Origin: a virus
UHGV virus genome: UHGV-0090440
Reading direction: 5' to 3' (one strand)
DNA: 64,000 nucleotides
How positions within the stretch are numbered: position 1 is the first letter of the stretch; every line of letters starts with the position of its first letter. A model generated the notes under the pieces. That model did no database searches. It was not told the DNA's origin and was given only the letters and a program-made list of their open reading frames with translations. A program made the position numbers and the translations under genes. This document shows positions 1,775 through 64,000 of this stretch, one piece after another.

Positions 1775-2803
1775 TTACGAATCCATCAAGCGGCTATTAG
1801 CCCCCACAGACACACCGCCACGGCGCAGATACCGCATAAGTGTTTCCGGTTTCTTCCAGGTTCCTTCCTGCATGATCTCCACCATAGACACCTGCTTTTC
1901 AGCCATATCAATAGCGGCCCCGACGCGTGCACTATGCCCGGTCCACGTCCGGTATCTTCCTTTGTTTGGCGTAGCATCCCTTTTATTCAGCAACCCCCAG
2001 GCGTCGCTGAATATTTTCTCCATTGCAGGTGCAGTAAGGGGCGTTGTCGTAATCCTGGCCTTATTGCTACGGTGTATCGGCGGGAACAGCACCGCGTCAG
2101 GATGTTCACGAAGCCCGGAAACATCCAGCCAGTCATTCAGCACAGCAGTAGTGCGACGGGAAAGCACCTTATCAAGCCCGGCGGCGGTCGTTATTGTCTT
2201 CGTGTGTGAAATATGTAGCGTGACAGTGTCACCTATTTGGTCCAGATCTCCTACACGAATACGCGAGATTTCCGACATACGCATCAGCGTATTGTATGCA
2301 ACAAAGAGAAAAGCCCGGTTGCGCTGGTCCACCAGCCGTTCTGACCTGGACAGCAGGACGTCGAGCAGTTTCAGGTCGTCCCACCGCAACGGTATAGCCT
2401 GGCCTGTTCGCTCGCCTTTTCCCGTTGCCGCTTCGCGCCGGATGCGCCGCATGGCCAGAGACACACTTTTATCGTCCGACAGCGGCGGGAGGCCACATTG
2501 CGAAAGCAGCATGTTAAGCATGGCATAGTGCTTATCAATGGTGGTCGAAGCCAGATCGGCATCATGCAACTGAAGAAAATACTCGCGGGCCATTTCTGGT
2601 GAGATCGGAAACCAGGCAAGCTGGCGAGCGTGACACCAGCGCGCCCAGGAATGAAACACCAACCGGAGGTCGCGCAGAGTATTCGGCGCATAAGCCCCCT
2701 GGTCATTCATGAACCGCATAAAGTTTTCTGCGGCTTCCTGGTACTCTTTGCCAATGTTGCGCAGAAAACCACCGGAACTGCCAGAGATAATCAACTCACT
2801 CAT
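1775..2803 (-). CDS. cre: Cre-like tyrosine site-specific recombinase
   Basis: 342 aa; colinear similarity to P1 Cre as recalled (SVSLAMRRIRRE, AYNTLMRMSEISRIRVGD, HSARVGAA, GTW, MRYLRR), covering the R..HxxR..W..Y catalytic signature. Confidence 0.9.
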   Translation of the reverse strand: MSELIISGSSGGFLRNIGKEYQEAAENFMRFMNDQGAYAPNTLRDLRLVFHSWARWCHARQLAWFPISPEMAREYFLQLHDADLASTTIDKHYAMLNMLLSQCGLPPLSDDKSVSLAMRRIRREAATGKGERTGQAIPLRWDDLKLLDVLLSRSERLVDQRNRAFLFVAYNTLMRMSEISRIRVGDLDQIGDTVTLHISHTKTITTAAGLDKVLSRRTTAVLNDWLDVSGLREHPDAVLFPPIHRSNKARITTTPLTAPAMEKIFSDAWGLLNKRDATPNKGRYRTWTGHSARVGAAIDMAEKQVSMVEIMQEGTWKKPETLMRYLRRGGVSVGANSRLMDS

Positions 2804-2954: not shown

Positions 2955-2988
2955 CTAACTTTAAATAATGCCAATTATTTAAAGTTAT
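2955..2988. other. candidate lox-type recombination site
   Basis: Perfect 13-bp inverted repeats TAACTTTAAATAA (2956-2968, 2975-2987) around asymmetric 6-bp core TGCCAA; as 13+8+13 it reads CTAACTTTAAATA-ATGCCAAT-TATTTAAAGTTAT, close to loxP arms (TAACTT...ATA) and spacer start (ATG). About 150 bp upstream of the Cre-like start. Confidence 0.5.
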
Positions 2989-4246: not shown

Positions 4247-4272
4247 GCCCCGCATCGCGGGGCTTTATATAT
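4247..4272 (+). terminator. intrinsic terminator
   Basis: GCCCCGC-ATC-GCGGGGC hairpin followed by TTTATATAT; sits between the convergent 3197-4237 and pacB genes. Confidence 0.55.
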
Positions 4273-5773
4273 CCAGATCCGGCATTTCGATATCCGCCAG
4301 AACCTGATCTCGGAAAGTTGCCATTTCGGCACCAATATCTTCATTAGCAGGCACATAGTCCACCAGCATAGTGAAGCAGTAGGTATCCCATCGGTCAGGC
4401 GATTTGATGTTTAGCTTTTGCCGCATGTGCTCTTTGCGCATCATCGCCATTTTCCCTTCTTCATTCATTAAAAAGGGGATTTTTGACGCTTGCTCTGCCG
4501 TTTTAGGGTCACTGTCTATCCGCATACGCCCTGACTTTATGGCATCACGCGCCATGATATTTGCGTAGGCACGCTGATTAACAAATCGCTCCCTGTCTTT
4601 GTTCGCAAACATGGGTTTTCCCCACCGAATACGTACCGGGTTCGCACCACGACGCACCAACTGCGCACACGTATCAGAACCAAAACCATCAGCATCAACC
4701 GCGATTGTTATATTCGGGTATTTTTCCGGCGTACATTCGTTATATATGAAGTCAGCAAAGGCCAATGGGTCCATAGTGCCAGGCATCTCCATTACCTTAA
4801 AGTTAACAACGCGCCGCTTATCCCTGTGACCTGATACCTTGCAGATGTTGAGGACCGACTTATCTCGCCCATTACCAACGTCAGCCGTTGCCACCCATCC
4901 CCAGTTTTTCTCCAACAACACCTTGCGGCGAGCAGAGCGATCGCATTCATCACGACCAAGCAAATAGCCGTTAATTTCTCGTGGGAACTGACCAAGCACC
5001 TTGACCATGTACTCAATAGAATCGCGCCCGCCATATTCCAGAAGCTTCTCCTTGATGAATTGTGGTGTGACGAACGGTGATTCTTCCGAGTTAAGAACAA
5101 TTGCTGTCCAGATCCCTTTCGGGTTGTCTGGGGTTTTTGCTCGAGAATGGTGCGAATCGTAGAAATAACCACTTGGCCTTGTTGGCTGGGATAGCATCAA
5201 CATCCGGTTATCTTCTTCAGTAAGAGCACCGGTCATTACGCCGATCGCCTTATCAGATATACCAGATGCTTCATCCAGAATTAGAAGCAAATGTGCCGCG
5301 TGTTCCCCCGCCAGCGCTTCTTCGTTGCCGAGTCGATAACCTTTGCAGAGAACTTCCCAAATCCCCTTACGGGAGCGCTCATAAAACATGGTGTCAGAGA
5401 GGACAAAATAGGTCTGCAACCACCCATGACGCTTAACTGCATTCGCCCAATACTGTTTAACGTATTTGAATACGCCTGTTTTTACCTGGCCTATCTTGTT
5501 AGCAACAATGATGACACGGGCATCGGGGAACAGGATCATAAAAATCAACAGCAACATCGCGGTAAGGGACGACTTCCCCGTTCCGTGTCCGGACGTGACG
5601 GTAGTCCTACTCCCCGTTTCCTGTACGGACTGAATGATCTGCTGCTGCTGCGGGGAGGGGAACATCCCAAAAATATCGACAACAGCCTGGGTAAAGTTGT
5701 AGCGGTATTTGATTACCATATCGCGCCAGCGTGGATCTCTGGTGACGCATTTAACCTTGCGCCCGCCAGCCAT
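4265..5773 (-). CDS. pacB: terminase large subunit (PacB-like)
   Basis: 502 aa; Walker A SGHGTGKSS, Walker B LLILDEAS, C-terminal acidic nuclease-type region (IAVDADGFG); translationally coupled to the upstream small subunit. Confidence 0.85.
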   Translation of the reverse strand: MAGGRKVKCVTRDPRWRDMVIKYRYNFTQAVVDIFGMFPSPQQQQIIQSVQETGSRTTVTSGHGTGKSSLTAMLLLIFMILFPDARVIIVANKIGQVKTGVFKYVKQYWANAVKRHGWLQTYFVLSDTMFYERSRKGIWEVLCKGYRLGNEEALAGEHAAHLLLILDEASGISDKAIGVMTGALTEEDNRMLMLSQPTRPSGYFYDSHHSRAKTPDNPKGIWTAIVLNSEESPFVTPQFIKEKLLEYGGRDSIEYMVKVLGQFPREINGYLLGRDECDRSARRKVLLEKNWGWVATADVGNGRDKSVLNICKVSGHRDKRRVVNFKVMEMPGTMDPLAFADFIYNECTPEKYPNITIAVDADGFGSDTCAQLVRRGANPVRIRWGKPMFANKDRERFVNQRAYANIMARDAIKSGRMRIDSDPKTAEQASKIPFLMNEEGKMAMMRKEHMRQKLNIKSPDRWDTYCFTMLVDYVPANEDIGAEMATFRDQVLADIEMPDLDI

Positions 5774-7137
5774 TAATCATCCTCCGGCGGTTCTATCGCG
5801 ATATCATCATCTCCGGCGTCATACCCTGCATCAGATGCATCATAATCACCGTAAATTTCAGCCGTTGCCGAAGGGTCAATATCCAGCTCTTCGTCGTTGG
5901 CCTCGAATTCTCCAGCTTTACGCTCGCCATTGCGGTCATAATCTCCGCACCCCAATTCTTCAACAATGGTTGCCACATCCGCCCGGCGCTCTGCCAGCCA
6001 TTGCGGATGGTTAGCCTGAAGCGTTGCAAACTCCCTTGCCTCTTTGTCCAGCTGTTCATCATCAACATCATTGACGTCAGAAACAGGTGGTTCGAGAAGA
6101 GTGATAGCTTTCGCCGCGCGCGCCGCGAGGATAGCCGGGACGCTGACCCCCTGGCGCTCGATGTATTCAGCAACACCGATATCATCCAGTTCCTCGCGCT
6201 CACGCATACGTATAGCGGCGGCGATAACTCTGGCTGCGCGTGCGTCAGCGCCAATGCGATATTCAATCTCTTTGCCACGCTGTTCGGCCTGTAGGCGTGC
6301 TAATTCGAGTTTTTCTCTGGCCTCAGCCTCTTTGAATGCTTGCTGGCGAGCGCTCTGACGAAGCTTTTCATCCCCCTGTCGCAGCTTTTGTTCGGACTGA
6401 TATATAGCTGCCAACCTACTGATAAAATCATTCATGTAGTAGGCCGCGTCACTGATTAGACCGAGAAGGCGCTGCCCAGGGTGCATTCCTTCTGGCTCTT
6501 TATCGCCCAAGGTGTCTATTTCCGCCTGTAGACGTTCGGCCTCCTGATCAACAATGCTTTGATACTGAAGTGCGCGCTCTTGCGCCATTTGAATTGCTAA
6601 CCGCAGGTGTTCTTCTGCGCCGTTCTTCATCATATCGCGAGCAACATTCGTAGTTGGCAATGTGGCACGCTGCACAGCACCGTCAGGGATCATTGCAGAA
6701 GATCCCTCAATTTTTGGGGCGCTTTTATCTTCTTCGGGGATCATTTTCGCCATTTTTTCGCGCAATGATCTCCTGACGGATTCTTTTATCTCATTGTTAT
6801 TATTTGAATTATTTTCATGATCCGAAGTTTTCTTTCTCGGCATACTTCGGAAAGAACCTGCGCCCTGCGAATTGTCAATTTCTGTAAATTTTGTTTTTTC
6901 TGCACCCTCTTCCTGCTTTTTTGTTGCTCTTCCTGCCCGTTTTTTTTCAGGTGATTTGGTGCTTTTTTTTGTTGTCTTTACCTGCGACCGCACCTCATTT
7001 TTTTTCATATTGAGATGCTTTCTGGCTGTATTGAAGCTAAGGCCATGCTCCTCACAGTATTCCTTTACAGTGATCCCTTTTTCTTCACGCAACGCTATAA
7101 AGCGGGCGCGGTGCTCCTCCCAATTAACCAGACTCAT
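5773..7137 (-). CDS. pacA: terminase small / pac-recognition subunit (PacA-like)
   Basis: 454 aa; N-terminal HTH-like region, long charged coiled-coil middle, acidic C-terminus; immediately upstream of the large subunit. Confidence 0.6.
   Translation of the reverse strand: MSLVNWEEHRARFIALREEKGITVKEYCEEHGLSFNTARKHLNMKKNEVRSQVKTTKKSTKSPEKKRAGRATKKQEEGAEKTKFTEIDNSQGAGSFRSMPRKKTSDHENNSNNNNEIKESVRRSLREKMAKMIPEEDKSAPKIEGSSAMIPDGAVQRATLPTTNVARDMMKNGAEEHLRLAIQMAQERALQYQSIVDQEAERLQAEIDTLGDKEPEGMHPGQRLLGLISDAAYYMNDFISRLAAIYQSEQKLRQGDEKLRQSARQQAFKEAEAREKLELARLQAEQRGKEIEYRIGADARAARVIAAAIRMREREELDDIGVAEYIERQGVSVPAILAARAAKAITLLEPPVSDVNDVDDEQLDKEAREFATLQANHPQWLAERRADVATIVEELGCGDYDRNGERKAGEFEANDEELDIDPSATAEIYGDYDASDAGYDAGDDDIAIEPPEDD
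6686..6833. other. candidate pac site
   Basis: Five GATC sites in about 150 bp inside the PacA-like gene, four embedded in TGATCY elements in both orientations; P1 pac is a cluster of Dam-methylatable TGATCA/G hexamers inside pacA (recalled). Confidence 0.35.
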
Positions 7138-7526
7138 AAAGCAACACCACGCTTTTTAACGGCGGCATTCCACAGCTTATTCGCCATGTCCACCAGCTCT
7201 CGTTGCTCTTTTCGCGCCTGTTCGACTGATTTCCTGCTACAGTTTTTAACCAGTAAACTGCCGTATTCAGGGGTTCGCCCACGCACCTTGAACTGATATC
7301 CGTTCAGGCCATGCAACCAGTATTTTCGTGGGTAAACGCGATCATCAAGCTCACAGATTGCCCTGCTTGAACGAACAAAATGACGAATGATGTTAGTTAC
7401 ACTTACTCGTGAGACATGGAGATGAGGGTATTTTTCTTTGGCGAGAATGGTAATTTCAGTGACTGTCAGATAGCAGTCAGCCCTAATCATGATATCCGCA
7501 ATTTCTGCGCTGCTGATTTGTTCCAT
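7134..7526 (-). CDS. hypothetical protein in the position of P1 lpa
   Basis: 130-aa ORF directly upstream of and overlapping the pacA-like start; motif copy about 80 bp upstream. Function inferred from position only. Confidence 0.45.
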   Translation of the reverse strand: MEQISSAEIADIMIRADCYLTVTEITILAKEKYPHLHVSRVSVTNIIRHFVRSSRAICELDDRVYPRKYWLHGLNGYQFKVRGRTPEYGSLLVKNCSRKSVEQARKEQRELVDMANKLWNAAVKKRGVAL

Positions 7527-7634: not shown

Positions 7635-8027
7635 CTACCAGCGAGACAAACGAACAACATGTTTCACTTTTGCGATCCACTTTCCGCGACAACTATTGAT
7701 TACGGCCTGTGCCAGCTTCAAATTGGCTTCAAAATCAGCCTTACTACCATCAGACTCCACCAGCATTCCGCCATCTATTTCTGGTAAACATAGATAATCC
7801 TGCTCAACCTGCAGCGGCATTGATGGCTCTCTGAATGGCGTTACTTGCTCTGCTTTCCAGCGAAAGCTAACCCTCATCCCCCTGGTGGTCATTACCAGAT
7901 AGCCTGTTATAGTGCTTTTATGGCCCACATCAGTACGCGTGGCATTGCATGACACGATCTTACAGTTAGCGATAGACCACTCCATATTGGTGGCCTGTTG
8001 AGTGCTTAATTTGGTAGTCCCGTACAT
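7635..8027 (-). CDS. hypothetical protein
   Basis: 130-aa ORF translationally coupled to the upstream 191-aa ORF. Confidence 0.5.
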   Translation of the reverse strand: MYGTTKLSTQQATNMEWSIANCKIVSCNATRTDVGHKSTITGYLVMTTRGMRVSFRWKAEQVTPFREPSMPLQVEQDYLCLPEIDGGMLVESDGSKADFEANLKLAQAVINSCRGKWIAKVKHVVRLSRW

Positions 8028-8602
8028 CAGAAAGCCTCCCAGTCAGTCGCGATAATATCCACACCAGTTGCAAACCAGTCTGTCTGCGCCTGTAAATCAC
8101 CATTCATCATTACCAGGCGAGGCATCACCATCACATCGCACCCTTCCACAATATCGAATGCCTCTTCCGGCAAGAATTCGAAGAGCTTTTCTTTGCTGCC
8201 AATGCTGCCACGGAACATCGATATATAGCTCCCTTTAGGCCATGATGTCCGCCGGGCATCAAGCCCTTTCATCATCCAGTAAAAAGCCGAGGAAAAAGGG
8301 ATATTCTTTTTGCCAATGATTACATTATTCGCTTCTGTGTACTTCAGGAACTTAACTAACCTTACCATTGACTCGGATAACGCAACGTATGGCTCATGAT
8401 TGATTGCTGACACGCTTACACCGTGCAATCCAACGCTTACCACTGTCATATCGCCGCTCTGTGCGGTTTCGATATTGACGCCTTTGCGAACTAATGAGGC
8501 GTAAAGTTCCTCTCGCTTTTGGGTCCAGCGTTCCCGCCTCCCTATGAAGTCACTCAAAATGAGATCTTCTTCTGCATATGCGTTATCGTTCGCCGTTAAC
8601 AT
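8027..8602 (-). CDS. hypothetical protein
   Basis: 191-aa ORF with AAAAGGAG RBS. Confidence 0.55.
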   Translation of the reverse strand: MLTANDNAYAEEDLILSDFIGRRERWTQKREELYASLVRKGVNIETAQSGDMTVVSVGLHGVSVSAINHEPYVALSESMVRLVKFLKYTEANNVIIGKKNIPFSSAFYWMMKGLDARRTSWPKGSYISMFRGSIGSKEKLFEFLPEEAFDIVEGCDVMVMPRLVMMNGDLQAQTDWFATGVDIIATDWEAF

Positions 8603-9055: not shown

Positions 9056-9131
9056 TGGTGGCCCCTACCGGACTTGAACCGGTGACCGTGCGATTATGAG
9101 TCGCCAGCTCTAACCACTGAGCTAAAGGGCC
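9056..9131 (-). tRNA. tRNA-Ile (anticodon CAU, ileX-like)
   Basis: 76-nt cloverleaf by hand folding: acceptor GGCCCTT/AGGGGCC, D-arm GCTCAGTGGTTAGAGC, anticodon loop CTCATAA, T-loop TTCAAGT, encoded CCA. Near-identical to E. coli ileX as recalled; CAT could also read Met. Confidence 0.85.
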
Positions 9132-9285
9132 AGATTACTGTTAATTCCGCTTACGCTTTTTGCCAGGACCGCGTAAGGCTTTTGCTGCTTGCTCGACCCC
9201 ATATACAACCACCAGCAGAAATAAAAATGTCCACCAAGGGTTCTTATCGGCAAACGTCCAAAATTCCATCATGTTCTCTATTTGG

Positions 9286-10113
9286 TTATTTCACCGGAAC
9301 AAACGGAACAGCGGTATTACTGGTCATATACTGCGGTAGCGTTCCGTTCCATTTGTTGATCGCTTCCAACTCCATAACGCCGGGGTTCTGGCGCAGAGCC
9401 TCACCGCGTAAACGAATGGCATCAGCTTCAGCCTGGGCTTTTGTGCGAATGGCATCGGCCTGTCCGGCAGCTTCTGCGCGCAGCATGTTGGCTTCTGCTT
9501 CGCGTTGCTTGACTTCCTGCTCGCGTTGCAGAGTTTTCTGGTTCGCCGTGACTTTGGCATTAATGCTGTCGATAACGGTTGGCGGGTACTCCGGCTTGCC
9601 CACATATGAGAGGCTCATTACCTGAATACCGATGGGCGTCATTTCTTCCTGGATGTCTTTAAGAGCTGCATCCAGTAGTTCAGACTTGCCACCGTCGATA
9701 AATTTGTCGGTGGTCATTTTGCTGGCCAGTCGGTTAAGTGCGTCGGCAATCTTCTGGCGCAGATCGGTGTCGGTAATGTCATCCACGCCTTTGCGGTAGG
9801 TCTGAAATACAGTTGTGACTTTTGCCGGATCAACCTTGTAAGCTACACCAATGTGGTAACCAATTGTTGTCCCGTCGCTCATTTGGAAGCTGAACGGATC
9901 ATCATAGGTCTTCATTTGCTTAAAGGTCGGGAAGATATAAACTTCTGTGTTCCAGCCTGTCCAGTAGCGACCAACGCCAACTACTTCGCCGACACCTTTA
10001 TCATCCCCCAGCTTATTTACTTTGATCCCTACATTGCCTGGTTCTACCCGGTCGCATCCGGTCAGACATAAAGAACCAAAAATAATCGCTGCACTAATCA
10101 ACGTTTTTTTCAT
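9286..10113 (-). CDS. SPFH/band-7 domain lipoprotein
   Basis: 275 aa; signal peptide with lipobox LTGC; SPFH-type core and Ala/Glu-rich coiled-coil tail (EAEANMLRAEAAGQADAIRTKAQAEADAIR). Confidence 0.8.
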   Translation of the reverse strand: MKKTLISAAIIFGSLCLTGCDRVEPGNVGIKVNKLGDDKGVGEVVGVGRYWTGWNTEVYIFPTFKQMKTYDDPFSFQMSDGTTIGYHIGVAYKVDPAKVTTVFQTYRKGVDDITDTDLRQKIADALNRLASKMTTDKFIDGGKSELLDAALKDIQEEMTPIGIQVMSLSYVGKPEYPPTVIDSINAKVTANQKTLQREQEVKQREAEANMLRAEAAGQADAIRTKAQAEADAIRLRGEALRQNPGVMELEAINKWNGTLPQYMTSNTAVPFVPVK

Positions 10114-10330
10114 TAATCAATTTCCTGGTTTTTTCACGAAAAAAGACTACTGCAAAAGCCGGGTAAATGAGCGCGAGAAGGACTCCCAACAATACAAGTA
10201 TTGTGCTGTCAGATGAGATCATATTTGGCAAAAGCCAAACATACAGAACCAGTGACACAATCAAACAGAGGACGGCATAAATATATAGCCGCACCCATAG
10301 CGTTCGACATTTGTTCGGATTGTTCTGCAT
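10094..10330 (-). CDS. small membrane protein
   Basis: 78 aa with two hydrophobic helices; overlaps the start of the SPFH gene (operon partner). Confidence 0.5.
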   Translation of the reverse strand: MQNNPNKCRTLWVRLYIYAVLCLIVSLVLYVWLLPNMISSDSTILVLLGVLLALIYPAFAVVFFREKTRKLINEKNVD

Positions 10331-10370
10331 CCTCTCACTCCATTATTCAACGAATAAAAAAGCTGCGGTG

Positions 10371-10385
10371 CCTGGTGCCTCCAGG
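10371..10385. other. conserved hairpin CCTGG-TGCCT-CCAGG
   Basis: Second copy of the GGTGCCTCC-core hairpin; on the minus strand it is followed after 9 nt by a T6 run and lies about 45 nt upstream of the 78-aa gene start. Confidence 0.4.
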
Positions 10386-10477
10386 TGACGTTAACCAGTT
10401 AACAATTAACGCCGGGATGTTTGATTTAACCACTACGGAGGATTGTTTTAACTGTTCCGCGTGCGCTTAGCCGCATT

Positions 10478-10592
10478 CACCGCAATGGTAAGAGCACTTG
10501 GCTGGCTGGGCGGCGATGACGCCTGTACGCATTTGGTGATCCGGTTCTGCTTCCGGCATTCGCTTAATTAGCCAAATACTCTTAACGTTGCG
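10478..10592 (-). ncRNA. structured element, family member E2
   Basis: Arms CACCGCAATGGTAAGAGCACTTGG / CCAAATACTCTTAACGTTGCG enclosing internal hairpins; begins 2 nt after the 3' end of the Ser-like tRNA candidate. Confidence 0.3.
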
Positions 10593-10593
10593 C

Positions 10594-10680
10594 TGGCGGA
10601 GAGTAATGGAATCGAACCATCATCGCTTGCGCAATGGGACGGTTTTCAAGACCGCTTGAGCACCATGCTCCCTACTCTCC
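10594..10680 (-). tRNA. tRNA-Ser(UGA)-like, atypical; possible pseudogene
   Basis: 87 nt: perfect 7-bp acceptor GGAGAGT/ACTCTCC, T-arm GATGG-TTCGATT-CCATT, anticodon stem-loop GCGGT-CTTGAAA-ACCGT (anticodon TGA), 17-nt variable arm, encoded CCA; but A at position 8 and a short D-loop. Hand-folded only. Confidence 0.4.
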
Positions 10681-10802
10681 AATTGTTGTGGTTACCGGTA
10701 CTGATCTCCGGCTTAGCGACCCCGGCTACTGACTGCATTGCAGTGTGTGAACTCGCCTCGTGTGTCGCTGGGGCATTTCTTTCCGCGCATCAGTCTGCGC
10801 AT

Positions 10803-10882
10803 CAACCACAACGGAAAGAGCATTGGCTAACCAGGCTCGCCGACTCTTCACGATTATCGGCCCAATGCTCTTACCTGTTGTG
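10803..10882 (-). ncRNA. structured element, family member E3
   Basis: Arms CAACCACAACGGAAAGAGCATTGG / CCCAATGCTCTTACCTGTTGTG with a 34-nt insert. Confidence 0.3.
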
Positions 10883-11061
10883 CGCTCCGTTTCGTGGAGC
10901 TAACGGCGGGTGATCGGGCCGCACCAGACTGGACTTATTTCAGCGTTATGCTCATGCCAGAGAATCAAACTGTGATGGTCGGTGCTGAACTCCGACACAG
11001 GGTTGTAGCAAGCCCCGCAAAGCGCGCACTACTGTAGTTGCGGCACATCAGCCTGTGCATT

Positions 11062-11161
11062 CACCACAATGTTGAGAACACTGGTTGTCACGCTGCCTCG
11101 CGACCTTTATTCATAGATTGGGATATGACCCCGTTACGCCAATGTTCTCAACGTTGTAGTG
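11062..11161 (-). ncRNA. structured element, family member E4
   Basis: Arms CACCACAATGTTGAGAACACTGG / CCAATGTTCTCAACGTTGTAGTG; insert contains an AGGCAG-loop hairpin. Confidence 0.3.
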
Positions 11162-11297
11162 CCGGTTACGGTTCCGGCCAGGCTTCTTCCTCAACGGGGT
11201 GTTCTCCATACGGACTACCGTTTATTGGTCGTTCCTGCGGTTTATGTTGTGAAGCCAGATGCTTATCTTCTGGTTGCTTCAAAGAGCTGCACTTCAT

Positions 11298-11384
11298 CAC
11301 AACGGTAAGGGTACTTCGTAGGGATTCGAACCCTCTGCCAAGCTCGGCGATCTCCGACGTCGCAAAATACCCTTACCTGTTGTG
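11298..11384 (-). ncRNA. tRNA-like element E5 (no anticodon arm)
   Basis: 16-bp stem CACAACGGTAAGGGTA/TACCCTTACCTGTTGTG enclosing a D-arm-like hairpin (GCGA-CGTCGGAGA-TCGC) and a T-arm-like hairpin (GAGGG-TTCGAAT-CCCTA); starts 2 nt after the tRNA-Thr 3' end. Confidence 0.35.
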
Positions 11385-11385
11385 T

Positions 11386-11461
11386 TGGTGCCGGTTAACG
11401 GACTCGAACCGCTGACATCCTGCTTACAAGGCAGGCGCTCTACCAACTGAGCTAAACCGGC
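11386..11461 (-). tRNA. tRNA-Thr (anticodon UGU)
   Basis: 76 nt: acceptor GCCGGTT/AACCGGC, D-arm GCTCAGTTGGTAGAGC, anticodon loop CTTGTAA, T-loop TTCGAGT, encoded CCA. Confidence 0.9.
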
Positions 11462-11465
11462 AATT

Positions 11466-11552
11466 TGGTGGGGAGTGATGGAGTCGAACCACCCGAGTCG
11501 CAATGACAGTAGATTTACAGTCTACCCCGCTGCCCCTACGGACTAACTCCCC
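11466..11552 (-). tRNA. tRNA-Tyr (anticodon GUA), type II
   Basis: 87 nt: acceptor GGGGAGT/ACTCCCC, anticodon stem-loop GTAGA-CTGTAAA-TCTAC, long variable arm, T-loop TTCGACT, encoded CCA. Confidence 0.8.
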
Positions 11553-11557
11553 TAAAT

Positions 11558-11632
11558 TGGCGATGGTGGGTGGATTCGAACCACCGACCAGTTGGTTAAC
11601 AGCCAACTGCTCTACCGCTGAGCTACACCATC
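11558..11632 (-). tRNA. tRNA-Asn (anticodon GUU)
   Basis: 75 nt: acceptor GATGGTG/CACCATC, D-arm GCTCAGCGGTAGAGC, anticodon loop CTGTTAA, T-loop TTCGAAT, encoded CCA. Confidence 0.9.
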
Positions 11633-12085
11633 ACTTGCCGGGTACGTCTCCGGCGAGGGCTTCCACCTCCGTATGCTTTTCGGCGCACCGCGCCCTGGCT
11701 GCAATTCGGTAACAGGGGATGCATAACCCTGGCTTCCAGCGTGATTAGCGCCTTCAGCATGACGGGATATACCCGTTGCAAGACATTATCCCAGAAAGCC
11801 ATTAACCAATGGCTGTTACGCGGGAGGGACGTAACAGGTAAGGGCGCTGACCAGAAAGACCTGACCCTTCTCATTCATCTGGTTAATCACACCAGCGCCC
11901 TTGCCTGTTATGCCTCCCCGTTCCCTAATACACAGACGGGGACACTCTGCGGTCGATTTTTTGACGGGGGACGACTCATACCCCGTGGCGTCAGGCTTCT
12001 TAGGCCGCTACCATCATCAGATCATCGTTTGCATTTACTTTAATGGTCGGTTTCTAAACCGCCGCAAAGTCGCTAACCATGACGA

Positions 12086-34147: not shown

Positions 34148-36463
34148 CTTGCGACGGCAAGAAACATCAACGGTGTTAAATTTGATGGTTCTGTGGACAT
34201 TTCGATACCAACAATTACGTCCAGAGGGCGTGTTACTGCGCTCACCGGTACAACACAAGGTGCTGCTACTGGATTGCAAATGTATGAGGCGTACAACAAC
34301 GGCTATCCTTCTGCTTACGGGAATGTGCTTCATCTTAAGGGCGCAACGGCAGTTGGTGAAGGTGAGTTGTTCATAGGTTGGAGCGGTACAAGTGGCGCTC
34401 ATGCACCTGTACATGTACGTTCGCGACGAGATACTGATACAGCCAGTTGGTCAGAGTGGGCGCAGGTCTACACATCGAAGGATTCCATCCCTGGTGTAAA
34501 TACCACGGGCAACCAGAACACAACCGGAAACGCGGCGTCTGCAACGAAATTACAAACGGCAAGAACTATTGGTGGTGTTTCATTTAATGGCACCGCAAAC
34601 ATCGACCTGCCGGGCGTGAATAAAACAGGCAATCAGAGCACTACCGGCAATGCAGCTACAGCCACAAAACTGCAAACAGCACGCACCATTAATGGGGTTT
34701 CATTTGACGGAACGGCTAATATTTCTCTGTCACCGGCAAATATTGGTTGCCCGGCATCTCCTACTGGTTGGCTTGAAACAGGTGATAATGGAGCATCAAT
34801 AACAACAGAGCAATTAGTGACTCTGCTACGAGATAATGGTGCTTTTAATGCAAAGGTATGGATAGCGCGTTGTGCCTGGGCGTATGCAAATAGTGCATCC
34901 ATACCAGACAGCGAAACAGGATGCGGCATTATTCCACTGGCTGGCGCAGTTATAGAGGTATTTAATAATAGCAGTAGCACGAGTTATTTTACCATTCGTA
35001 TAACAACGGCAACGACGACAAGTGTATCTGGCGCACTCACTAATGCTGAATTTATCTATGTGTCTAATGGCACAAGTTATTCACCAGGATGGCGCAGAGC
35101 GTATAACACTAAAAACAAACCTACTGCGGCTGATGTCGGAGCTTTACCACTATCTGGAGGAGCGTTAACTGGCGGATTAACTGCTGCTGGCGAGATTATT
35201 TCCAAATCGGCGAATGGTCTGCGCATTGCCTATGGCAACTATGGATTCTTTATCCGTAATGACGGCGGCAGCACATATTTCATGCTAACAGCATCAGGAG
35301 ATACGTTAGGTTCATGGAACAGTTTGCGACCGATTACAATTAATAATACCAGCGGTGTTGTGTCTATTGGTAATGGACTAAATGTTACTGGTGGCGTTAA
35401 TGGTAGTTTGAACGGTAATGCAGCGACAGCGACCAAGTTACAAACCGCTAGAACTATAAATGGGGTGTCGTTTGATGGTTCTAAAAATATTGAGCTAACG
35501 GCGGAAGATTTAAATCTTGAGCAAACTGTAGAATTAGCCGCAGGAGCATTGCAGAAAAACCAGAACGGCGCAGATATTCCGGGAAAAGATACCTTCACTA
35601 AAAATATTGGTGCATGTCGCGCTTTTCACAGTTCTATTAGTACAGGTGCAGGGAACTGGACAACGGCACAATTGATTGAATGGCTGGATTCTCAAGGGGC
35701 ATTCAATCACCCATACTGGATGTGCAAATGTTCATGGTCATACGGCAGTAATAAAATTATTACTGACACCGGATGTGGACTTATTCACCTTGCGGGTTGC
35801 GTTATTGAAGTTATGGGCTATAAAGGCGCCATGACCATTCGTATAACCACACCGAGTACCTCTAACGGTGGTGGCACTACGAATGCGCAATTTATATATA
35901 TTAACCACGGTTCAGAGTATTTACCTGGCTGGCGACGTGACTACAACACGAAAAACCAGCAGCCTGCATTTGCTTTAGGGCAGACAGGAAGCATAGTTGG
36001 AAATGACAAAGCTGTTGGATGGAACTCGATTAGCGGGGTTTATAACGCTAATATTGGTGGATCATCTACGTTGATTCTCCATTTTTATATGGGAGCTGGT
36101 AGTTGTCCGGCTGTTCAGTTCCGCGTGAATTATAAGAACGGCGGTATTTATTATCGTTCTGCGCGTGACGGTTATGGTTTTGAAGCCGACTGGTCGGAAT
36201 TTTATACTACAACACGTAAACCATCTGCGGGAGATGTTGGGGCATATACCAAAGCAGAATGTGATTCACGATTTATTACAGGTATTCGATTAGGTACAAA
36301 ATCGTCTGTGCAAACATGGAATGGTCCTGGATGGAACGATAAATCTGGTTATGTTGTTACTGCCTCAATTAACTCAAATAAGGACGAACTTATTGATACA
36401 ACTCAGGCAAGGCCGCTGCAGTATTGTATCAATGGTACATGGTATAACGCGGGAAGTATTTAA
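34058..36463 (+). CDS. alternative tail-fibre C-terminal cassette (Sv'-like), silent in this orientation
   Basis: 801-aa frame beginning with TTG inside the inverted repeat; first 30 aa identical to residues about 420-450 of the 1286-aa fibre; contains [15 protein letters not shown](N/G)GVSFDG repeats. Confidence 0.7.
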
Positions 36464-36465
36464 TT

Positions 36466-36999
36466 ATGCAGCATTTAAAAAACATCAGATCAGGTAATCC
36501 AAAAACTGTTAAACAATATGAATTGACGCGACAATTTGGTGTTGTCTGGTTGTATTCTGAAGACGGTAAAAACTGGTATGAGGAACAAAAGAACTTCCAG
36601 GATGACACTATAAAAATTGCTTACACATCAGATGGAGTTATTGTGGCTATAAATAAAGACGTATCTACAATAAATCCAGAAGGTTTAAGTGTGGTTGAGG
36701 TTGCTGACATTACCGCAAATCGCCGTGCTGACATTTCTGGTAAATGGATGTTCAAAGATGGCGTAGTGATAAAGCGAACTTATACCGAGGAAGAACAGAG
36801 GCAACAAGCTGAAAATGAAAAGCAAAGCCTATTGCAACTTGTCAGGGATAAAACCCAACTGTGGGACTCACAGCTACGGCTGGGCATCATTTCCGATGAG
36901 AATAAACAGAAATTAACCGCGTGGATGCTATATGCGCAGAAAGTAGAATCTACAGATACCTCCATCCTGCCAGTAACGTTTCCCGAACAACCAGAATGA
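36466..36999 (+). CDS. tail-fibre assembly chaperone (U'-like), alternative copy
   Basis: 177 aa; strongly similar to the 37027-37554 product (GNPKTV.QY.LT..F...W...[19 protein letters not shown]). Confidence 0.75.
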
Positions 37000-37026
37000 G
37001 AAAAGGCCCGTTATCGGGCCTTATTT

Positions 37027-37554
37027 TTACTCAGGTTTTTGTGGCCATTCTGGCTTTGACGTATCCACGCGGCTTACAAGAACGCTGTAGCGTTCCCATG
37101 CTTCCAGTCGGCTGTGGTCCTCATCCGTTGCCATATTCAGCCTTACTGCACGCTCTAGTAGTTGAATGACTGATTCAGCATCAGCAAGAAGTCTGGCTTT
37201 CTGATTTTCTACCTGCTGCTGTAATTCCTCTGCCGTATAAATACGTTTAATAACTGCGCCATCCTTAAACATCCAGTTACCAGAAATGTCGGCACGTCGG
37301 TTAGCAGTAATATCCGGCACTTCAACAACACTTAATCCATCCGGTCTGATAGCTGTTACATCCTTTTCCACATAGCGGATGATGTTATCTTTGTCATACG
37401 CTAATTTTATCGTGTCATCCTGGAAGTTCTTTTGTTCCTCATACCAGTTTTTACCGTCTTCTGTAAAAAACCAGATGACATCAAAATGTTTCGTCAGCTG
37501 GTATTGCTCAACTGTTTTTGGATTACCCGCTGTTATATTGATCAAATGCTGCAT
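37027..37554 (-). CDS. tail-fibre assembly chaperone (U-like), expressed copy
   Basis: ORF track start 37629; ATG 37554 preferred ([13 protein letters not shown], 5 bp after the fibre stop), about 175 aa. Confidence 0.75.
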
Positions 37555-37558
37555 AAAT

Positions 37559-40500
37559 TTAAACCTGTGCCACGTTATACCATGTTCCATTAATCTGTTT
37601 CTGAACCGGCCTGTAATATACACCTCCAATATTATCGGCAGAATTCGAGCCGGTATCCTGGACTATAATGCCAGTATAAACGCAGCCTGATGGTGCCTGA
37701 TGCGTCCATGTCGAGGTGTTATTTGCTGGTTTATATGTAGATGCTCCACCAAGTCGCATGTCTCTTACATAACGAGAATCAAAGTTACCGTAATCCGAGG
37801 GGTTAACACGCCCTGTAATATTTATGGTTTTATTACTTTGAATGCTGCCGGAGACAAAGCGCATAACATGAACGTTATTAGCATAAACGTCCAGATTACC
37901 GTCGCCATTTTGTTTAAAGCCCGTGTCATTATCACCCAAAACAATCGAGTTACCGCCAAGAGCACTGGATGTTCCGATGCCCAGTGCACCATTCAATTGA
38001 CCGCCAGATAATGACAACGCCCCAACCTCAGCAGCAGTCGGTTTAATGTGCGAACTGTAAATTACATATACAGTTCCATCTGTCAGGCCTGTTGGTTTAT
38101 TCGCTGTATAAGTTGGTGATGTATGAATCGTTACGCTGGCGTTACTGGTATAATCCCACTGAATATTAACACCTGTGGCGTAATTACCTATTTCAACATA
38201 AACATCATAGGTATCACCGGATGTATTCACCCATGCAAAATTAGTAAATCCAACCGAGGTCCGTCGCCATAATGCACCAGTAATACCTTTTGGATTTCCA
38301 TTTCCTGCACGCAGAACCAGCTCAGAGATGCCTGCTTGCTGCGGGGAGCCAACGTTAAACCCTGCACCACCAATCAGGCTTATGTAAACCACGGAACTGG
38401 CCTGTGGCATGGTTACAGTTGCCAGTTTGAACCATCCAGCACCACCACTAAAAGACATTGTTGTGGAGTTGATCGTGCCTATAGACCGTGGGTTAAGTTC
38501 AATATCTTTAGAACCATCAAACGAGACGCCGTTGATAGTACATGCTGTCTGCAACTTGGTCGCTGTCGCTGCATTACCGGTAGTGTTCTGATTACCTGTT
38601 TTATTCACACCTGGCAGGTCGATATTGGCACTACCATCGAATGACACTCCGCCTATTGTGCGTGCTGTTTGCAGTTTTGTTGCAGTTGCAGCATTACCGT
38701 TCAAACTACCATTGATGCCGCCAGTAACATCCAGACCATGCCCCATGCTTATCCGACCAGTTCTAAGATTAAGCGTAAAGGGACGTAGTGGCCCTATATC
38801 ACCATTTTCCCCCTCATTCTCTCGTGTAGGGATGATATGCAGGCATTCTTCAGAACGACGAAAAATAGCACCAAAAGATGAATTAAATATCCTTAGTGCA
38901 TTGACTGTCGATATTTTTACTTCACTGCTGAAAAGGGCTTTAACAAGGACAGACAAAGCATCCCATTTAAGATTCATCAGGTCTTTTGTTGTGGTGCTCT
39001 GGCGACTTCTCCATTTGAAATATTCATTGCCGTTGTCGCCTGTTTCAAACCACATGTATGAATCAGTATCGCTGTCGGCATCATTTTTAAAACCAATCTT
39101 CGCCCAGTCAGTATTCCGAATCCAGGCAAGGATTGAGTCGTTTTCAAAAGTAAGTCCACCGGACAAGGTATCGCCTGTCTTTTGAACCGCGTTATCAGCC
39201 TTGTTTACCGTTTCCTGTAGATTTAAATCTTCCGCCGTTAGCTCAATATTTTTAGAACCATCAAACGACACCCCATTTATAGTTCTAGCGGTTTGTAACT
39301 TGGTCGCTGTCGCTGCATTACCGGTTGTGTTCTGATTACCTGTTTTATTCACACCTGGCAGGTCGATATTGGCACTACCATCGAATGACACTCCGCCTAT
39401 TGTGCGTGCTGTTTGCAGTTTTGTTGCAGTTGCAGCATTTCCTGAAAGGCTTGAAACAAACTGATGTGAGCAGTAATAACCACGTCCATTTTTAAAATCC
39501 AGAATGGTTTGAGTATTTGTACTTTCTGCTACTGGATCTGTGGCCCCCCACTTATAGGTGGCTTGACCAACGGTATAGTCAGTAGTAGGAACAATTACGT
39601 TCAAGCCCTCCTCAGCAAATATCTTGATAGGAAATGCTCTGGCTTCAACGTAAAATACACTACACAAATCGTCATCTTTCACACTTGAAATAATCGAGTG
39701 TATAGCTCGCTCAGTAGTAGAATATATTGAGAAAAAACCAGCTGCATATGAACCGCGATCAGACCAACCGCCAGGCATAACAAAACCATTAAATTCACAA
39801 TTATTCATGGCGTATCCGCCAGCTGAGGAATAAGTAGTTATCACAACTCGTGAGGCTAATTCATCGGTACTGCCTCCAGATCGGCGAAAGACTATAGGAT
39901 ACCACTTACCGCTTACTGCATTTGCAGGCGCTGAAAAAGTGTATTTTCTCATCCCTTTTTTATTGTCTATTTCGCTTTTGCTGTAAACGTCCAGATCTTT
40001 AGGAGTCAACGTAATGTCAGCCGAACCATCGAACCTGACGCCATTAATGTTTATGGCTGTTTTCAATTTCGTCGCGGTGTCGGCGTTCCCTGTCAGCGCC
40101 CCGGTGATCCCGCCGTTGAAAGTCTGGCGCGCACTCCATGTGTTAGCCGTGCTCAACAGGGGGATCTTTTCACCGCTGGTACCGAGTTCTCTTAAACCAA
40201 GGTATTGGATAACGGCCAGTGTGCTTGTTTTAGCCAGAATATCTCGACCGACTGACGTTAAATCAGTCTGCGCTACCGTATCCTTACCAGTGAAATAAGG
40301 CAGTTTGTTTGCGCCTGTCGCAAGACCAGCAAGCGCGGTTAAAGTTGCATCAAGTGGCTGTTTCCCTGCCAGCGCATTTGTCATTGTTGTCGCAAAGTTC
40401 GGGTCATTGCCCAGTGCTGCTGCAAGCTCATTCAGGGTATCAAGAGCTTCAGGTGATGAGCCGACCAATGCAGAGATAGCAGCCCGTACGTAAGCAGTCG

Positions 40501-44619: not shown

Positions 44620-47600
44620 TTAATCCTCAAGCAGAGCATCCAGCGACTGGTCATTAATAGTTGTGCTCGCACGTGGTCGCGGCTGCGGCTGCGATGTTTT
44701 GACAACATTATCCGGATCGCCTTTTGTATTGTTCTTGTTCACATTCAGCAGATCGTTCAGGATAGAGCAGATGTTATCCAGCGCCTTCAACATAGCAGGA
44801 TCGTTATTTATAGTGTCAGTAGTTAATGGTTGTCTTATTCCGCTTCGTGCGAGATCGGTTACAGTAGGGAGTTGTGGCGGCATAGCAAGAAAAGGTTCTT
44901 GCACAGCTGAAGCAGAGCCAAATATGGCGTTATTGGCACCAGTTGCTATTCCCCTAATGCTATTAGCGGTTTGTTGAATCCCCCCATTCAGCCAGTCTCC
45001 AACATTTCTTGTTAATGGGCTAATAGCTCGCGCAATCGCACTATTCTGCCCAGTAGACTGCATTACAAGATCGTTCAATATCCCTGTACTATCAATCCCC
45101 CCAACAAGTCGTGAAAGGTTATCGCCAACGGCAGGAATTACTGCGGTTCCTGTCTGTTTAAGCCCTGACACCGTGGAATCAAATAGCGAACCAAAGAAGC
45201 TCTTATCCTCACCTGTAACCACCTTGTAGCCGTTGTCATAAATCTGCACATCACTTGGTGCCGTGATAGTTCGTTTTCCAGAGGTAACTACTGGCGCAGC
45301 TCCCGCCATAGCCTGGTTGATTGCTAGAGCCTGCTCCTGCTGTGGGGTTTTCGGTGCTGGCGCTGCAGATGAAAAGCCCTCCATAGCCTGGCTGATTGCT
45401 AGAGCCTGCTCCTGCTGTGGGGTTTTCGGTGCTGGCGCTGCAGATGAAAAGCCCGCCATAGCCTGGCTGATTGCTAGAGCCTGCTCCTGCTGTGGAGTTT
45501 TCGGAGTAGAAGGGGATACTTGATCTCCCGGAAGTAGATCAATGATTTCTGTATCGTGATTAACAGTGCGTTTTTGTTGTATGGCTGTTGCGATATCAGC
45601 CACTTGAGAAGCTTTTTTAAATCCAAAAGATTTACCGGTTAAGCCGGATATCTTTTCAGTAAGAGCCTGATCCATCCCTTTCGCTTTTTCGGAAAGCGAA
45701 GATATAGAACCAAACGAAGTAGCCAACGCAAAATCCTTTACCAGGTCCAGACTTGTTCCAGCAAGGCTGGTAGCCGCGCCGCCAAATAAATTACTTGCAC
45801 CACTGATTCCGCTTTCATTTATTGTGATTAACCGCTCAAGCAAACTCGATGGAGAGCCGGTATTAACATCAGCGTTCTCTGGATTAATCGGTTGTGGTTG
45901 GTTACCTGTTTTTTGTGGCTTTTTGACTGCCTGGGCATGTTGTGCAACCTCAATTGGCTGTTGTGTTGCTGTCGGAACGGCATTCAAAACTGGTTGAGCT
46001 GGAGATTTTCCATTAGCATATTTTACCTTGCGACCAACACTATATTGCGAATCGCGGGCAATTAGCTGACCACCATTTTCTTTCTGAATTTTATTAATCC
46101 GCGCCAATGTTTCGTCAGAGAATTGTCCCTCCCATCGACCAGTGTTTGTGTTAAATGCTCCAAGTGCGTTCTTAATGAACTCATTATTAACTGCCGGATT
46201 TCCGCCTTCTTTCGTCGCAATTGCACGAACTAATTGCGTCATAACCTCTGGTTTGCTGACATCTATTTTTTCATTAGGCGATACACCAAGATATTTACTG
46301 ACGTTATCAATATATTGGTTAGTATTGTTCTCATTTGGCGGTGCCCATTTTGAAATGATGCTGGATACCGTCTGTAACTTCTGATATCCCGCTGCGGCAC
46401 TGGTGCCGTTGTAATAGCTGGAAACCTGGTTTGCCAGTGCCCTGATCCCTTCTTCAGGTGTGTTAAATCGCGCAAAACGTTGTTCACCTTTTGCATTTGG
46501 CGATTCCAGCGTCGCCCCTTCCTGGTTGGCAAAAACAAGATTGCCGAGATTATTATTTCGGTAATTGCGGTTTTTAGAGTTGCTGCCGCCAATATTCAGA
46601 TCCGCTGCAATGGTGTTGTTGGCAGGTGAACTAAATTCAGTTGGAGAAGTATACCCGTGCTCACCAACTCCATCCTCGCCATTACGCCCACCTTGTAATT
46701 GTTCACCTAGAGAATGAATCGCATCGACAGTTTTTTTGGTGCCGTCTTCAACAGCTTTTTTTACTTGTTTCGTGTTTTCGTCAGTGGATAAAAATGTATC
46801 CTTAAGGCTACCAAAAACAGATTTGGTGATATCTACCGCGCCGTTAACACCACGAGCAATATCTCCGGTATCAAAATTCTGAAGTTTTTCACCTGCTCTT
46901 TCAAATCCTAGCGCAGAAATTCCTTTCCCTATCAAGTTCGTTGCGCCCGACACCAAGCCCCCCATATCGAGCACATTAGCTGTTGCGTAAGCCGTTTTTT
47001 GCTGTTCGGCTACAGCATCATCGTCACTTAATCCAAAGGCTGCCTTTTGCGCATCTGTATCAGTGTAACCATCTATAGCGTCATATCCCGCCATAGCCAG
47101 CGAACCGATGATAGGGATAGCTCTTGCAGCTGTAGAAGCAGCTGATTTAACACCTATTTTTGCAGCACTTTTGAGGGCTACGGATTCGGTTTTTTTCTTT
47201 GCAACAGTTTCACCTGTTTTAACTGTGGCCTCTTCGGCAACAACACCTGCTGGCTTAACTGCCTTTGCTGTGTTTTTTGTTTCTTTAGCAATACCCTTAG
47301 ATGCGTCGCTTGTGGTGCTGATGTCTTTGGCTTTACTAACCTTTGTTTTAACAGTCTTTGCAGCTCCGGCACCAGCTCCAGCAGCAGCGGTTCCGGCAGC
47401 GGCTTTTTCACCAACAGAAAGGGCTTTTTTCCCCAGATTGCGACCTTTCCTTTTCGGTTTGTTCCGTTTATTTTTACCAGCCTGATCGCCAATATTGATT
47501 TTATTTCTTCTGCTTGCTCGATTTCTCCAGAGATCACTTAAGCCGAACTTATTCCCAGAAGATACTGATTTGCGTAGCTTAACTACTTCGTCGGAGACAT

Positions 47601-62755: not shown

Positions 62756-63397
62756 ATGATTATATTGGTAGCCAGCCAAAAAGGTGGCTGTGGCAAATCA
62801 ACCACCAGCGTAAATATTTGTGCGGAGCTTGCCCGCGCAAATAAGGACGTAGTTCTACTTGATGCAGATAAGCAAGGAACATCTGCCCGTTGGGCATCGG
62901 ACCGTAATGCGGCAGAGGTTTCTCCAGTAATTCATTGCGTCCAGAAGTTTGGGAATATTCGTGAAACACTTCTTGATCTGGACAAGCGTTATGAATTTGT
63001 GGTTGTTGATACCGCTGGTCGTGATAGCAAAGAAATGCGCACCGGTATTACTGCGGCGGATGTTTTGCTTGTTCCATTCAGGCCATCTCAGCCAGATTTA
63101 GACACTCTGGCGCATTTTGTTGAAGTCTTTGAAGAGGCTTTGGATCTGATGCCTAATCCTAGCATTAAGGCGTGCGCAGTCTTAACAATGGCCCCATCCA
63201 ATCCGGTTGTGAATGAAGCCAATGAGGCCAAAGAGTACCTGGCTGAATATCCGCAACTGAAGTTGCTGAAAACCATCATTCGCGATCGCAAGGTTTACCG
63301 CGATTGTATGGCTGAAGGGAAGGGCGTTGTTGAGATGGACAACGGGAAAGCTAAAGGTGAAATCCAGATGTTGGTTAAGGAGTTATTAAGTGATTAA
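62756..63397 (+). CDS. parA: ParA/ParF-type partition ATPase
   Basis: ORF track start 62726; ATG 62756 preferred (GAGGAA RBS); deviant Walker A KGGCGKST; about 213 aa. Confidence 0.8.
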   Translation: MIILVASQKGGCGKSTTSVNICAELARANKDVVLLDADKQGTSARWASDRNAAEVSPVIHCVQKFGNIRETLLDLDKRYEFVVVDTAGRDSKEMRTGITAADVLLVPFRPSQPDLDTLAHFVEVFEEALDLMPNPSIKACAVLTMAPSNPVVNEANEAKEYLAEYPQLKLLKTIIRDRKVYRDCMAEGKGVVEMDNGKAKGEIQMLVKELLSD

Positions 63398-63677
63398 GCC
63401 TCGTAAATCGGTAAAAGCCCCCGAAGTAAAAGACCTCGATCTTGAACGCCGAATTGAGGCTTTTGCCAGCAAAGCTGATTTGGTGCCGGGTGAGCAACCA
63501 GAAGACAACAAAGTGCTCGATAAGGACGCCCCACGTGATTTTAAATCCATTCGTGTTGGCTTCAATGAATACGAGTACCAGGTACTTGATGCGTTAAGCA
63601 AAAAGCATAATCGCAGCAAATTGAATATGATCCGCCATGCTATCCTCATGTTAGCGGAGTCTGAGGAAGCAAAATAA
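63390..63677 (+). CDS. small ribbon-helix-helix partition adaptor (ParG-like)
   Basis: 95 aa, GTG start overlapping the parA stop with AAGGAG RBS; C-terminus fits an RHH fold (KLNMIRHAILMLAE). Confidence 0.55.
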   Translation: MIKPRKSVKAPEVKDLDLERRIEAFASKADLVPGEQPEDNKVLDKDAPRDFKSIRVGFNEYEYQVLDALSKKHNRSKLNMIRHAILMLAESEEAK

Positions 63678-63721
63678 AGTCTTTCAGGGTGGTTTTAGAA
63701 CTTAAAAAATCTTGAACCAAA

Positions 63722-63777
63722 GATGCACCAATACACTACTAATTTGGTGCACCTTTACATCCTTTTTGGTTCCAATT
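63722..63777. promoter_or_regulatory. candidate downstream centromere-like site
   Basis: Palindrome GCACCAAT...ATTTGGTGC (63725-63751) and a second copy of TGGTTCCAATT (63767-63777). Confidence 0.3.
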
Positions 63778-63946
63778 GTGTACCATTTTTCATTAATTTA
63801 CTTATGCGCAAAAGTGGGCTTCATGAAAAAGCTCATTATTGAAATAACGATAGAAAGCAATTTCTAATCAACTAGTGGTTGTCAGCCTATTCGGCTTATA
63901 AGATCATACGCTGTTATACGTTTTTTACGCTTTGAGGAATCCACAA

Positions 63947-64000
63947 TGAGTGAGGCAGAAGCCCGCCCGACTAACTTTATTCGTCAGATCATCGATGAAG
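63947..64000 (+). CDS. glnS: glutaminyl-tRNA synthetase-like ORF, first 18 codons only
   Basis: Translation MSEAEARPTNFIRQIIDE matches the E. coli GlnRS N-terminus as recalled; truncated by the window end. Confidence 0.55.

Follow-up and report, generated by a model that had tools for sequence, protein, structure and literature searches.

A conserved cluster of GATC elements within pacA as the likely packaging site of a D6-like phage-plasmid

Introduction

The virus genome UHGV-0090440 was analysed as a stretch of 64,000 nucleotides (nt), here called the window. Its gene pacA, coding for a small terminase, contains five GATC sites close together, each at the core of a short conserved element. 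A sequence-only reading of the same DNA had pointed to this cluster as a candidate pac site regulated by methylation and resembling that of phage P1. The cluster is likely to be the pac site, or at least the recognition part of it, of a D6-like phage-plasmid of the P1 supercluster: the GATC cores are kept at the level of the DNA while the protein encoded around them changes, and clusters of the same type recur in the pacA genes of very distant relatives. Phage-plasmids of the D6 type are common in Escherichia coli, Salmonella and Shigella, with 141 matching plasmid records.

The packaging locus

The window is collinear with Escherichia phage D6 over nearly its full length, and the segment that holds pacB and pacA (4265-7137) is 98.9% identical to that phage. 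On this comparison the window is a D6-like plasmid prophage of the P1 supercluster. The packaging region has the following features, given in window coordinates with protein lengths in amino acids (aa).

7134-7526, minus strand: lpa, late promoter activator of 130 aa (Pfam PF25716, E=4e-56), directly upstream of pacA, as in P1.
5773-7137, minus strand: pacA, small terminase or 'pacase A' of 454 aa; an open reading frame 98.9% identical to D6 pacA, with a PHROG terminase match at E=2e-184.
4265-5773, minus strand: pacB, large terminase subunit of 502 aa, 56% identical to P1 PacB; annotated in D6 and matched to the PHROG terminase large subunit.
2956-2987, plus strand: rox, Dre recombination site and counterpart of P1 lox; an exact match over 32 base pairs (bp), annotated in D6.

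The order lpa-pacA-pacB-c1-rox-dre found here stands against lpa-pacA-pacB-c1-lox-cre in P1. The rox site lies 3.7 kilobases (kb) downstream of the GATC cluster along pacA transcription, beyond pacB and c1. An open reading frame of 342 aa (1775-2803, minus strand) occupies the position of D6 dre, which encodes a Cre-like recombinase; with this frame and rox, the window spans the 'immC' region of D6.

In a direct pairwise comparison, the pacA product aligns with P1 PacA over the full length, end to end, at 21% identity (E=4e-11). Judged by this alignment it is a true but very divergent PacA, in keeping with the earlier placing of the cluster inside a PacA-like gene. The divergence is so large that tblastn with the window PacA against 50,697 phage records recovers D6 as the sole match, P1 PacA not being among the matches. 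A Pfam search with the same protein gave no match, and no solved structure of PacA was found. D6-type ('P1-g2') phage-plasmids have been said to possess only pacB homologues (PMC7969092), a statement that conflicts with the full-length homology to P1 PacA seen in the alignment.

Five GATC elements within pacA

The GATC sites of the cluster start at window positions 6688, 6701, 6739, 6767 and 6819, and thus fall within 150 bp, as the sequence-only reading had claimed. Four of them are TGATCY hexamers, also as claimed: TGATCC on the minus strand at 6687-6692 and 6738-6743, and TGATCT (6766-6771) and TGATCC (6818-6823) on the plus strand. The fifth, at 6701, reads GGATCT, so that the cluster has three TGATCC, one TGATCT and one GGATCT. 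Along pacA the GATC-to-GATC distances are 52, 28, 38 and 13 bp and the orientations are interleaved (← ← → ← →). The elements together span about 137 bp, nt 314-452 of the 1365 nt of pacA. The conserved unit exceeds the hexamer, being AATGATCCC(Y), with the complement (R)GGGATCATT. The elements and the conserved islands beside them are these:

6686-6824, no strand: candidate pac recognition region with five conserved GATC elements, pacA nt 314-452.
6818-6824, plus strand: element 1, pacA nt 314-320; sense CGGATCA, plus strand TGATCCG; codes S/A/E-D-H.
6764-6772, plus strand: element 2, pacA nt 366-374; plus strand AATGATCTC, sense strand of relatives AGGGATCATT.
6737-6745, minus strand: element 3, pacA nt 393-401; exact AATGATCCC; codes (K/E)-M-I-P; inverted pair with element 2.
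6698-6706, plus strand: element 4, with GATC at 6701-6704 (pacA nt 434-437); degenerate in the window, plus strand GAAGATCCC.
6686-6694, minus strand: element 5, pacA nt 444-452; exact AATGATCCC; codes (A/Q)-M-I-P; inverted pair with element 4.
6872-6890, minus strand: conserved GATC-free island AATTTACAnAAAnTGACAA, pacA nt 248-266, just 5' of the elements; invariant runs in a variable segment.
6838-6843, minus strand: conserved island ATGCCG, pacA nt 295-300; invariant.
6795-6800, minus strand: ATAACA, a conserved island within the AT-rich gap of 52 bp that separates elements 1 and 2; the weak IHF-like sequence TAACAATGAGATA begins with it.

The island at 6872-6890 may be part of the site. 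The paired arrangement is clearest in the related L006 lineage. Element 4 is a full AGGGATCATT there, and two perfect inverted repeats of 10 nt are formed, one by elements 2 and 3 with an 18-nt spacer and one by elements 4 and 5 with a 3-nt spacer. Relative to L006, the window has a degenerate element 4 (AGGGATCTTC) and one change in element 2. The four hexamers do form the two oppositely oriented pairs described in the sequence-only reading, but as the conserved layout this picture fails: it arose because the site at 6701, a full element in relatives, was omitted, and with that site the orientations interleave.

A sixth conserved GATC (AGGGATCAC) lies at 7072-7075 (pacA nt 63), in the part of the gene that codes for the N-terminal helix-turn-helix (K-G-I-T). 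Its conservation is uninformative on whether it belongs to the site, because the protein is also conserved at K-G-I-T.

Density and uniqueness of the cluster

The window contains 226 GATCs, as expected from shuffled sequences (230±14), and the pacA cluster is the densest group among them, reaching ~37 per kb where the background is 3.5 per kb. The density thus exceeds the background, as the sequence-only reading required, yet at least five GATCs in 135 bp occur somewhere in 64 kb in 21% of uniform placements and in 17% of dinucleotide shuffles. The extended motif is rarer. Four TGATCY in 138 bp are found in ~2% of nulls, the pacA cluster is the only place in the window with at least three TGATCY in 150 bp, and the exact 9-mer AATGATCCC has two copies in 64 kb, both in the cluster. 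Likewise, in the complete D6 genome (91,159 bp), the pacA locus is the sole cluster of five GATCs and the sole location of AATGATCCC.

The second-densest group of GATCs in the window, four sites in 142 bp (44715-44856), consists entirely of RGATCG at spacings of 36, 48 and 54 nt. It lies inside the homologue of D6 orf40, which encodes a sit-like tail transglycosylase, and its motif is unlike the pac elements. It is probably a coding repeat or a product of chance.

Selection on the DNA of the cluster

Conservation was followed in 30 distinct D6-lineage pacA sequences from plasmids and IMG/VR, with PacA identities down to 68-74%, and for the cluster segment (pacA nt 230-500) in 26 distinct versions with nucleotide identities down to 63%. 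The stretch of PacA encoded around the cluster is the least conserved of the protein: across three lineages, the scope of the invariance counts in this paragraph, 10-35% of PacA residues 51-150 are invariant, against 75-100% in the C-terminal half. Within this variable stretch all 20 GATC columns are nevertheless invariant, compared with 40% of the other columns, and the chance of five random 4-mers all being invariant is 3e-5. Eight invariant runs of at least six bases occur in nt 230-500. Four hold GATC elements (CGGATCA, the run of element 1; GATCATT; AAATGATCCC; AATGATCCC) and four lie outside them (AATTTACA, TGACAA, ATGCCG, ATAACA). Further towards the 3' end of pacA, at nt 589-1261, the three lineages have no GATC in common.

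All five GATCs are retained in 24 of the 26 versions, and no version has gained a GATC within nt 230-500. The site is present in every version for elements 1 and 4, the latter with variable flanks, and in 25 of 26 for element 2, where the coded residue varies (R/G) and the DNA is kept. The losses are found in two IMG/VR contigs, L047 and L061, in which T-to-C changes at pacA nt 368 and 396, respectively, leave GACC; in L061 the change also converts Ile to Thr. These contigs may be tolerated variants or decaying prophages.

The coding context indicates the level at which the elements are kept. Within nt 267-472, third-codon positions are invariant in 11/11 cases in the element cores and in 8/58 outside them (Fisher p=4e-8). 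The GATCs occupy all three codon phases (GAT-C, xGA-TCx and xxG-ATC), and adjoining residues vary (K/E, A/Q, R/G, S/A/E) although the bases of the motif do not. Selection therefore acts on the DNA, and on this sequence evidence the cluster is under purifying selection at the DNA level.

Recurrence across PacA lineages

A scan based on PacB, with one genome per species, gave 21 loci, 12 of them with a full-length pacA upstream of pacB. Together with P1 and two distant plasmids, the scan loci yielded 11 distinct PacA lineages for comparison, many only 21-33% identical to the window PacA. In these lineages the density of GATC at nt 130-480 of pacA is 4 times that of the remaining gene (70 versus 44 sites; binomial p=2e-13), and the share of the TGATC type is 67/70 in that region versus 22/44 elsewhere. 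A cluster of TGATC-type sites is present at this position of pacA in every lineage examined. Most lineages follow the P1 plan, with three to seven TGATCA at ~12-nt spacing, a gap of 65-150 bp, and then one to four more; the D6 lineage stands apart in its layout.

The type of element tracks a motif in the N-terminal part of PacA, a pattern that fits direct read-out of the flanks by the protein. PacA proteins with NTARKHL, namely those of the D6 lineage and of a Buttiauxella relative only 27% identical, go with TGATCC elements, and those with NTARRYL or NTARREL go with TGATCA. In plasmid prophages of Pantoea, Enterobacter, Xenorhabdus, Serratia and Erwinia (L012-L021 and L030), the arrays likewise lie at nt 130-480 of pacA, always with the GATC core, and combine the P1-like TGATCA plan with NTARRYL or NTARREL; the D6 lineage and L032 differ in combining TGATCC with NTARKHL. 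The TGATCA arrays embedded in pacA of P1-supercluster prophages thus seem to be sites of one kind with the D6-like cluster.

Methylation

All 11 PacA lineages have GATC in their clustered elements, whatever the flanks. A fixed GATC beside switching flanks is the pattern that an external constraint such as Dam methylation would produce. D6 itself encodes an adenine methylase of the D12 class, the Dam family (Pfam E=2e-56), and the gene lies just past the end of the window. It is intact in E. coli plasmid CP125036.1. This plasmid is the probable source of the window: the two PacA proteins agree at 100% identity over the 94% that aligns, and the last 200 nt of the window match the plasmid exactly. 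Dam methylation probably gates packaging at the D6-like cluster, as suggested by the biology of P1 (PMC10028697), by the near-invariant GATC cores and by the Dam-family methylase encoded by the phage.

At the end of the window and just past it (window ~62900-64000; CP125036.1 23641-26256), a phage-borne glutaminyl-tRNA synthetase gene runs off the edge, and in CP125036.1 the methylase gene follows directly. This methylase gene is absent from the PLSDB gene table.

Other features of the window

Next to the packaging module, a 191-aa open reading frame (8027-8602, minus strand), corresponding to D6 orf6 and annotated there as hypothetical, has a Tad2-like (Thoeris anti-defense 2-like) domain (PF11195, E=1e-9). 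Its product may be an anti-defence protein encoded beside the packaging genes. Five tRNA genes follow on the minus strand at 9056-11632 (Met, Ser(tga), Thr, Tyr and Asn). The stretch of the D6 record examined is annotated with only tRNA Ser, Thr and Asn, and blastn gave no long match between D6 and window 9137-11790, so that the tRNA island differs from that of D6. The tail-fibre and cin-invertible region (34485-40023) has 78% identity or no match to D6, against 95-98% elsewhere.

Weighing the interpretations

Several observations count against the cluster being a pac site. The GATC density alone is not statistically significant, and with 17-21% of nulls reaching it the case rests on conservation. 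One GATC is missing from each of two natural variants, so that some of the sites can be dispensed with. The co-variation of PacA motif and element may reflect a single evolutionary switch. Neither GenBank record of D6 carries a pac annotation, and an earlier description in print is possible. The layout is unlike that of P1 pac: TGATCA/G does not occur among the five elements, no gap exceeds 52 bp where P1 has ~90 bp, and there is no 4+3 arrangement around a spacer. Finally, no match to the IHF consensus WATCAANNNNTTR was found at up to one mismatch in pacA nt 100-520 by a scan that recovers the known P1 site; the sole IHF-like sequence there, the weak TAACAATGAGATA at nt 339-351, misses the consensus at this threshold. 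The likeness to P1 pac put forward in the sequence-only reading therefore stands for the true PacA, the position in the 5' third of pacA, the gene order, the DNA-level selection and the family-wide TGATC clusters, and fails for the detailed architecture. The cluster lacks two of the features that, taken literally, define P1 pac, and for this reason it is not classed as P1 pac proper. It would most likely work like P1 pac all the same.

Among the alternatives, the one that survives best keeps the pac site and drops the role of methylation, GATC being the mere core of a sequence read by PacA. The conservation data are the same for a protein contact and for a required methyl group, and the flanks co-vary with the PacA motif as direct protein read-out would have it. 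This alternative is nevertheless unlikely. The GATC is kept in 11/11 lineages while the flanks switch, as a fixed Dam constraint would give, the homologous system of P1 depends on methylation (PMC10028697), and D6 has a Dam-family methylase of its own.

A second alternative, improbable on present evidence, is a regulatory element responsive to Dam or SeqA and unrelated to packaging, acting on the timing of pacA and pacB, on an internal or antisense promoter, or in sequestration linked to replication. Clustered, conserved GATCs are typical of regions under SeqA or Dam control, and the sites lie within an operon that needs late expression. Against this, a consensus scan of 6400-7300 found no sigma-70-like promoter on either strand, and an internal or antisense promoter was discarded on that result. 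The elements are longer than GATC, forming a 9-10-mer whose sequence co-varies with PacA, their position is orthologous to the mapped pac of P1, and the lytic replicon of D6 (repL) lies elsewhere. The scan of 6400-7300 also returned six terminator-like matches against 1.3 expected. Five are antisense to pacA, one of them (6705-6719) between two GATC elements; the excess possibly comes from the T-rich antisense strand.

That there is no cis element at all, the cluster being due to chance and to a protein constraint imposed by the M-I-P and D-H peptides that PacA repeats, is very improbable: five GATCs in 135 bp do arise in 17-21% of null windows and two elements do code the same M-I-P tripeptide, but the synonymous-site and codon-phase analysis rules out the peptide repeats as the cause (third positions invariant in 11/11 against 8/58, p=4e-8; three reading phases; neighbouring residues changing while motif bases stay), and the feature recurs in pacA genes whose products are 21-33% identical.

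A model for D6-like packaging

With the cluster taken as the pac site, we infer binding, cleavage, direction of packaging and dependence on methylation as follows. The N-terminal helix-turn-helix of PacA would bind five GATC elements within its own gene, with the consensus AATGATCCC and its complement GGGATCATT. Elements 2/3 and 4/5 would act as inverted pairs, and element 1 alone. PacA together with PacB would then cut concatemeric DNA nearby. By analogy with P1, headful packaging would run along pacA transcription, that is, towards lower window coordinates, crossing pacB, c1 and rox. The terminal redundancy would then include rox, as that of P1 includes lox. Methylation of the GATC adenines by host Dam and by the Dam-family enzyme of the phage probably gates cleavage, as in P1. 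That packaging starts at the D6-like cluster is thus predicted from the biology of P1, the near-invariant GATC cores and the phage methylase.

A further proposal is plausible and held more tentatively: the D6 lineage may have re-coded a P1-type pac, with the asymmetric 9-mer AATGATCCC in inverted pairs being read by a PacA whose conserved N-terminal motif became NTARKHL, and with GATC remaining fixed in the clustered elements of each P1-supercluster lineage examined. In that case gating by methylation would be ancestral and conserved, and the identity of the element a tunable layer of specificity. The pac/PacA combinations of D6 and P1 would then form an orthogonal pair for phagemid packaging, and the statement in PMC7969092 on the missing pacA homologue would be corrected.

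A known packaging start would predict which DNA the D6-like phages transduce, and would allow D6-based phagemids orthogonal to those of P1. The co-varying pairs of terminase and pac element would offer a natural series for the study of small-terminase specificity and of methylation gating.

Comparison with P1 pac and other packaging sites

The pac site of P1 covers about 161 bp and has seven TGATCA/G hexamers. These are Dam sites needed for pacase action, and Dam methylation controls binding and cleavage by the pacase, assisted by IHF and HU (PMC10028697). The termini of P1 are also recovered by PhageTerm (PMC5557969). In the annotation of NC_005856, the cleavage sites (90804-90813) correspond to pacA nt 276-285 and the IHF site to nt 256-268. 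Read from the sequence, P1 pacA has four TGATCA at nt 194-234, and TGATCG, TGATCA, TGATCA and TGATCG at nt 324-381, with a central gap of 96 nt between the arrays. The P1 site was reportedly described by Sternberg and Coulby (1987/1988) and by Skorupski et al. (1994).

Two of the islands upstream of the D6-like elements, ATGCCG and TGACAA (the complement of TTGTCA), are identical to the 12 nt across the cleavage sites of P1, which ATGCCG abuts. At least two such island matches occur in 3.5% of shuffles and the other lineages are without them; the likeness was dropped as evidence and kept as a weak lead. The islands may mark the cleavage region or a site for a host factor.

Packaging sites inside the small-terminase gene, read by the DNA-binding domain of its product, are found in P22 (gene 3), SPP1 (gene 1) and Sf6. 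The D6-like cluster is like them in being embedded in this way, but the sequences are unrelated, and those sites are not known to have GATC repeats or methylation gating. Dense, conserved GATC clusters whose methylation state is informative are known from Dam/SeqA control, at oriC, P1 oriR and the IS10 and pap promoters. Those are origins or promoters, whereas at the D6-like cluster the consensus scan found no promoter-like site, and location and co-variation point to the terminase.

The closest parallel is P1 itself. In both phages the site lies in the 5' third of pacA (nt 194-381 in P1, nt 314-452 here), directly upstream of pacB, with a Cre or Dre recombination site a few kb away along pacA transcription. 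Both have repeated short elements, each with the Dam site GATC, a phage-encoded methylase of the Dam family, and a PacA/PacB terminase, with headful packaging known for P1 and predicted for the D6-like phage. The elements are asymmetric TGATCC/T, within the 9-mer AATGATCCC, in the D6-like site and palindromic TGATCA/G in P1. Five of them stand in interleaved inverted pairs over 137 bp, compared with seven in 4+3 arrays ~90 bp apart. The D6-like case would extend the P1 paradigm without overturning it.

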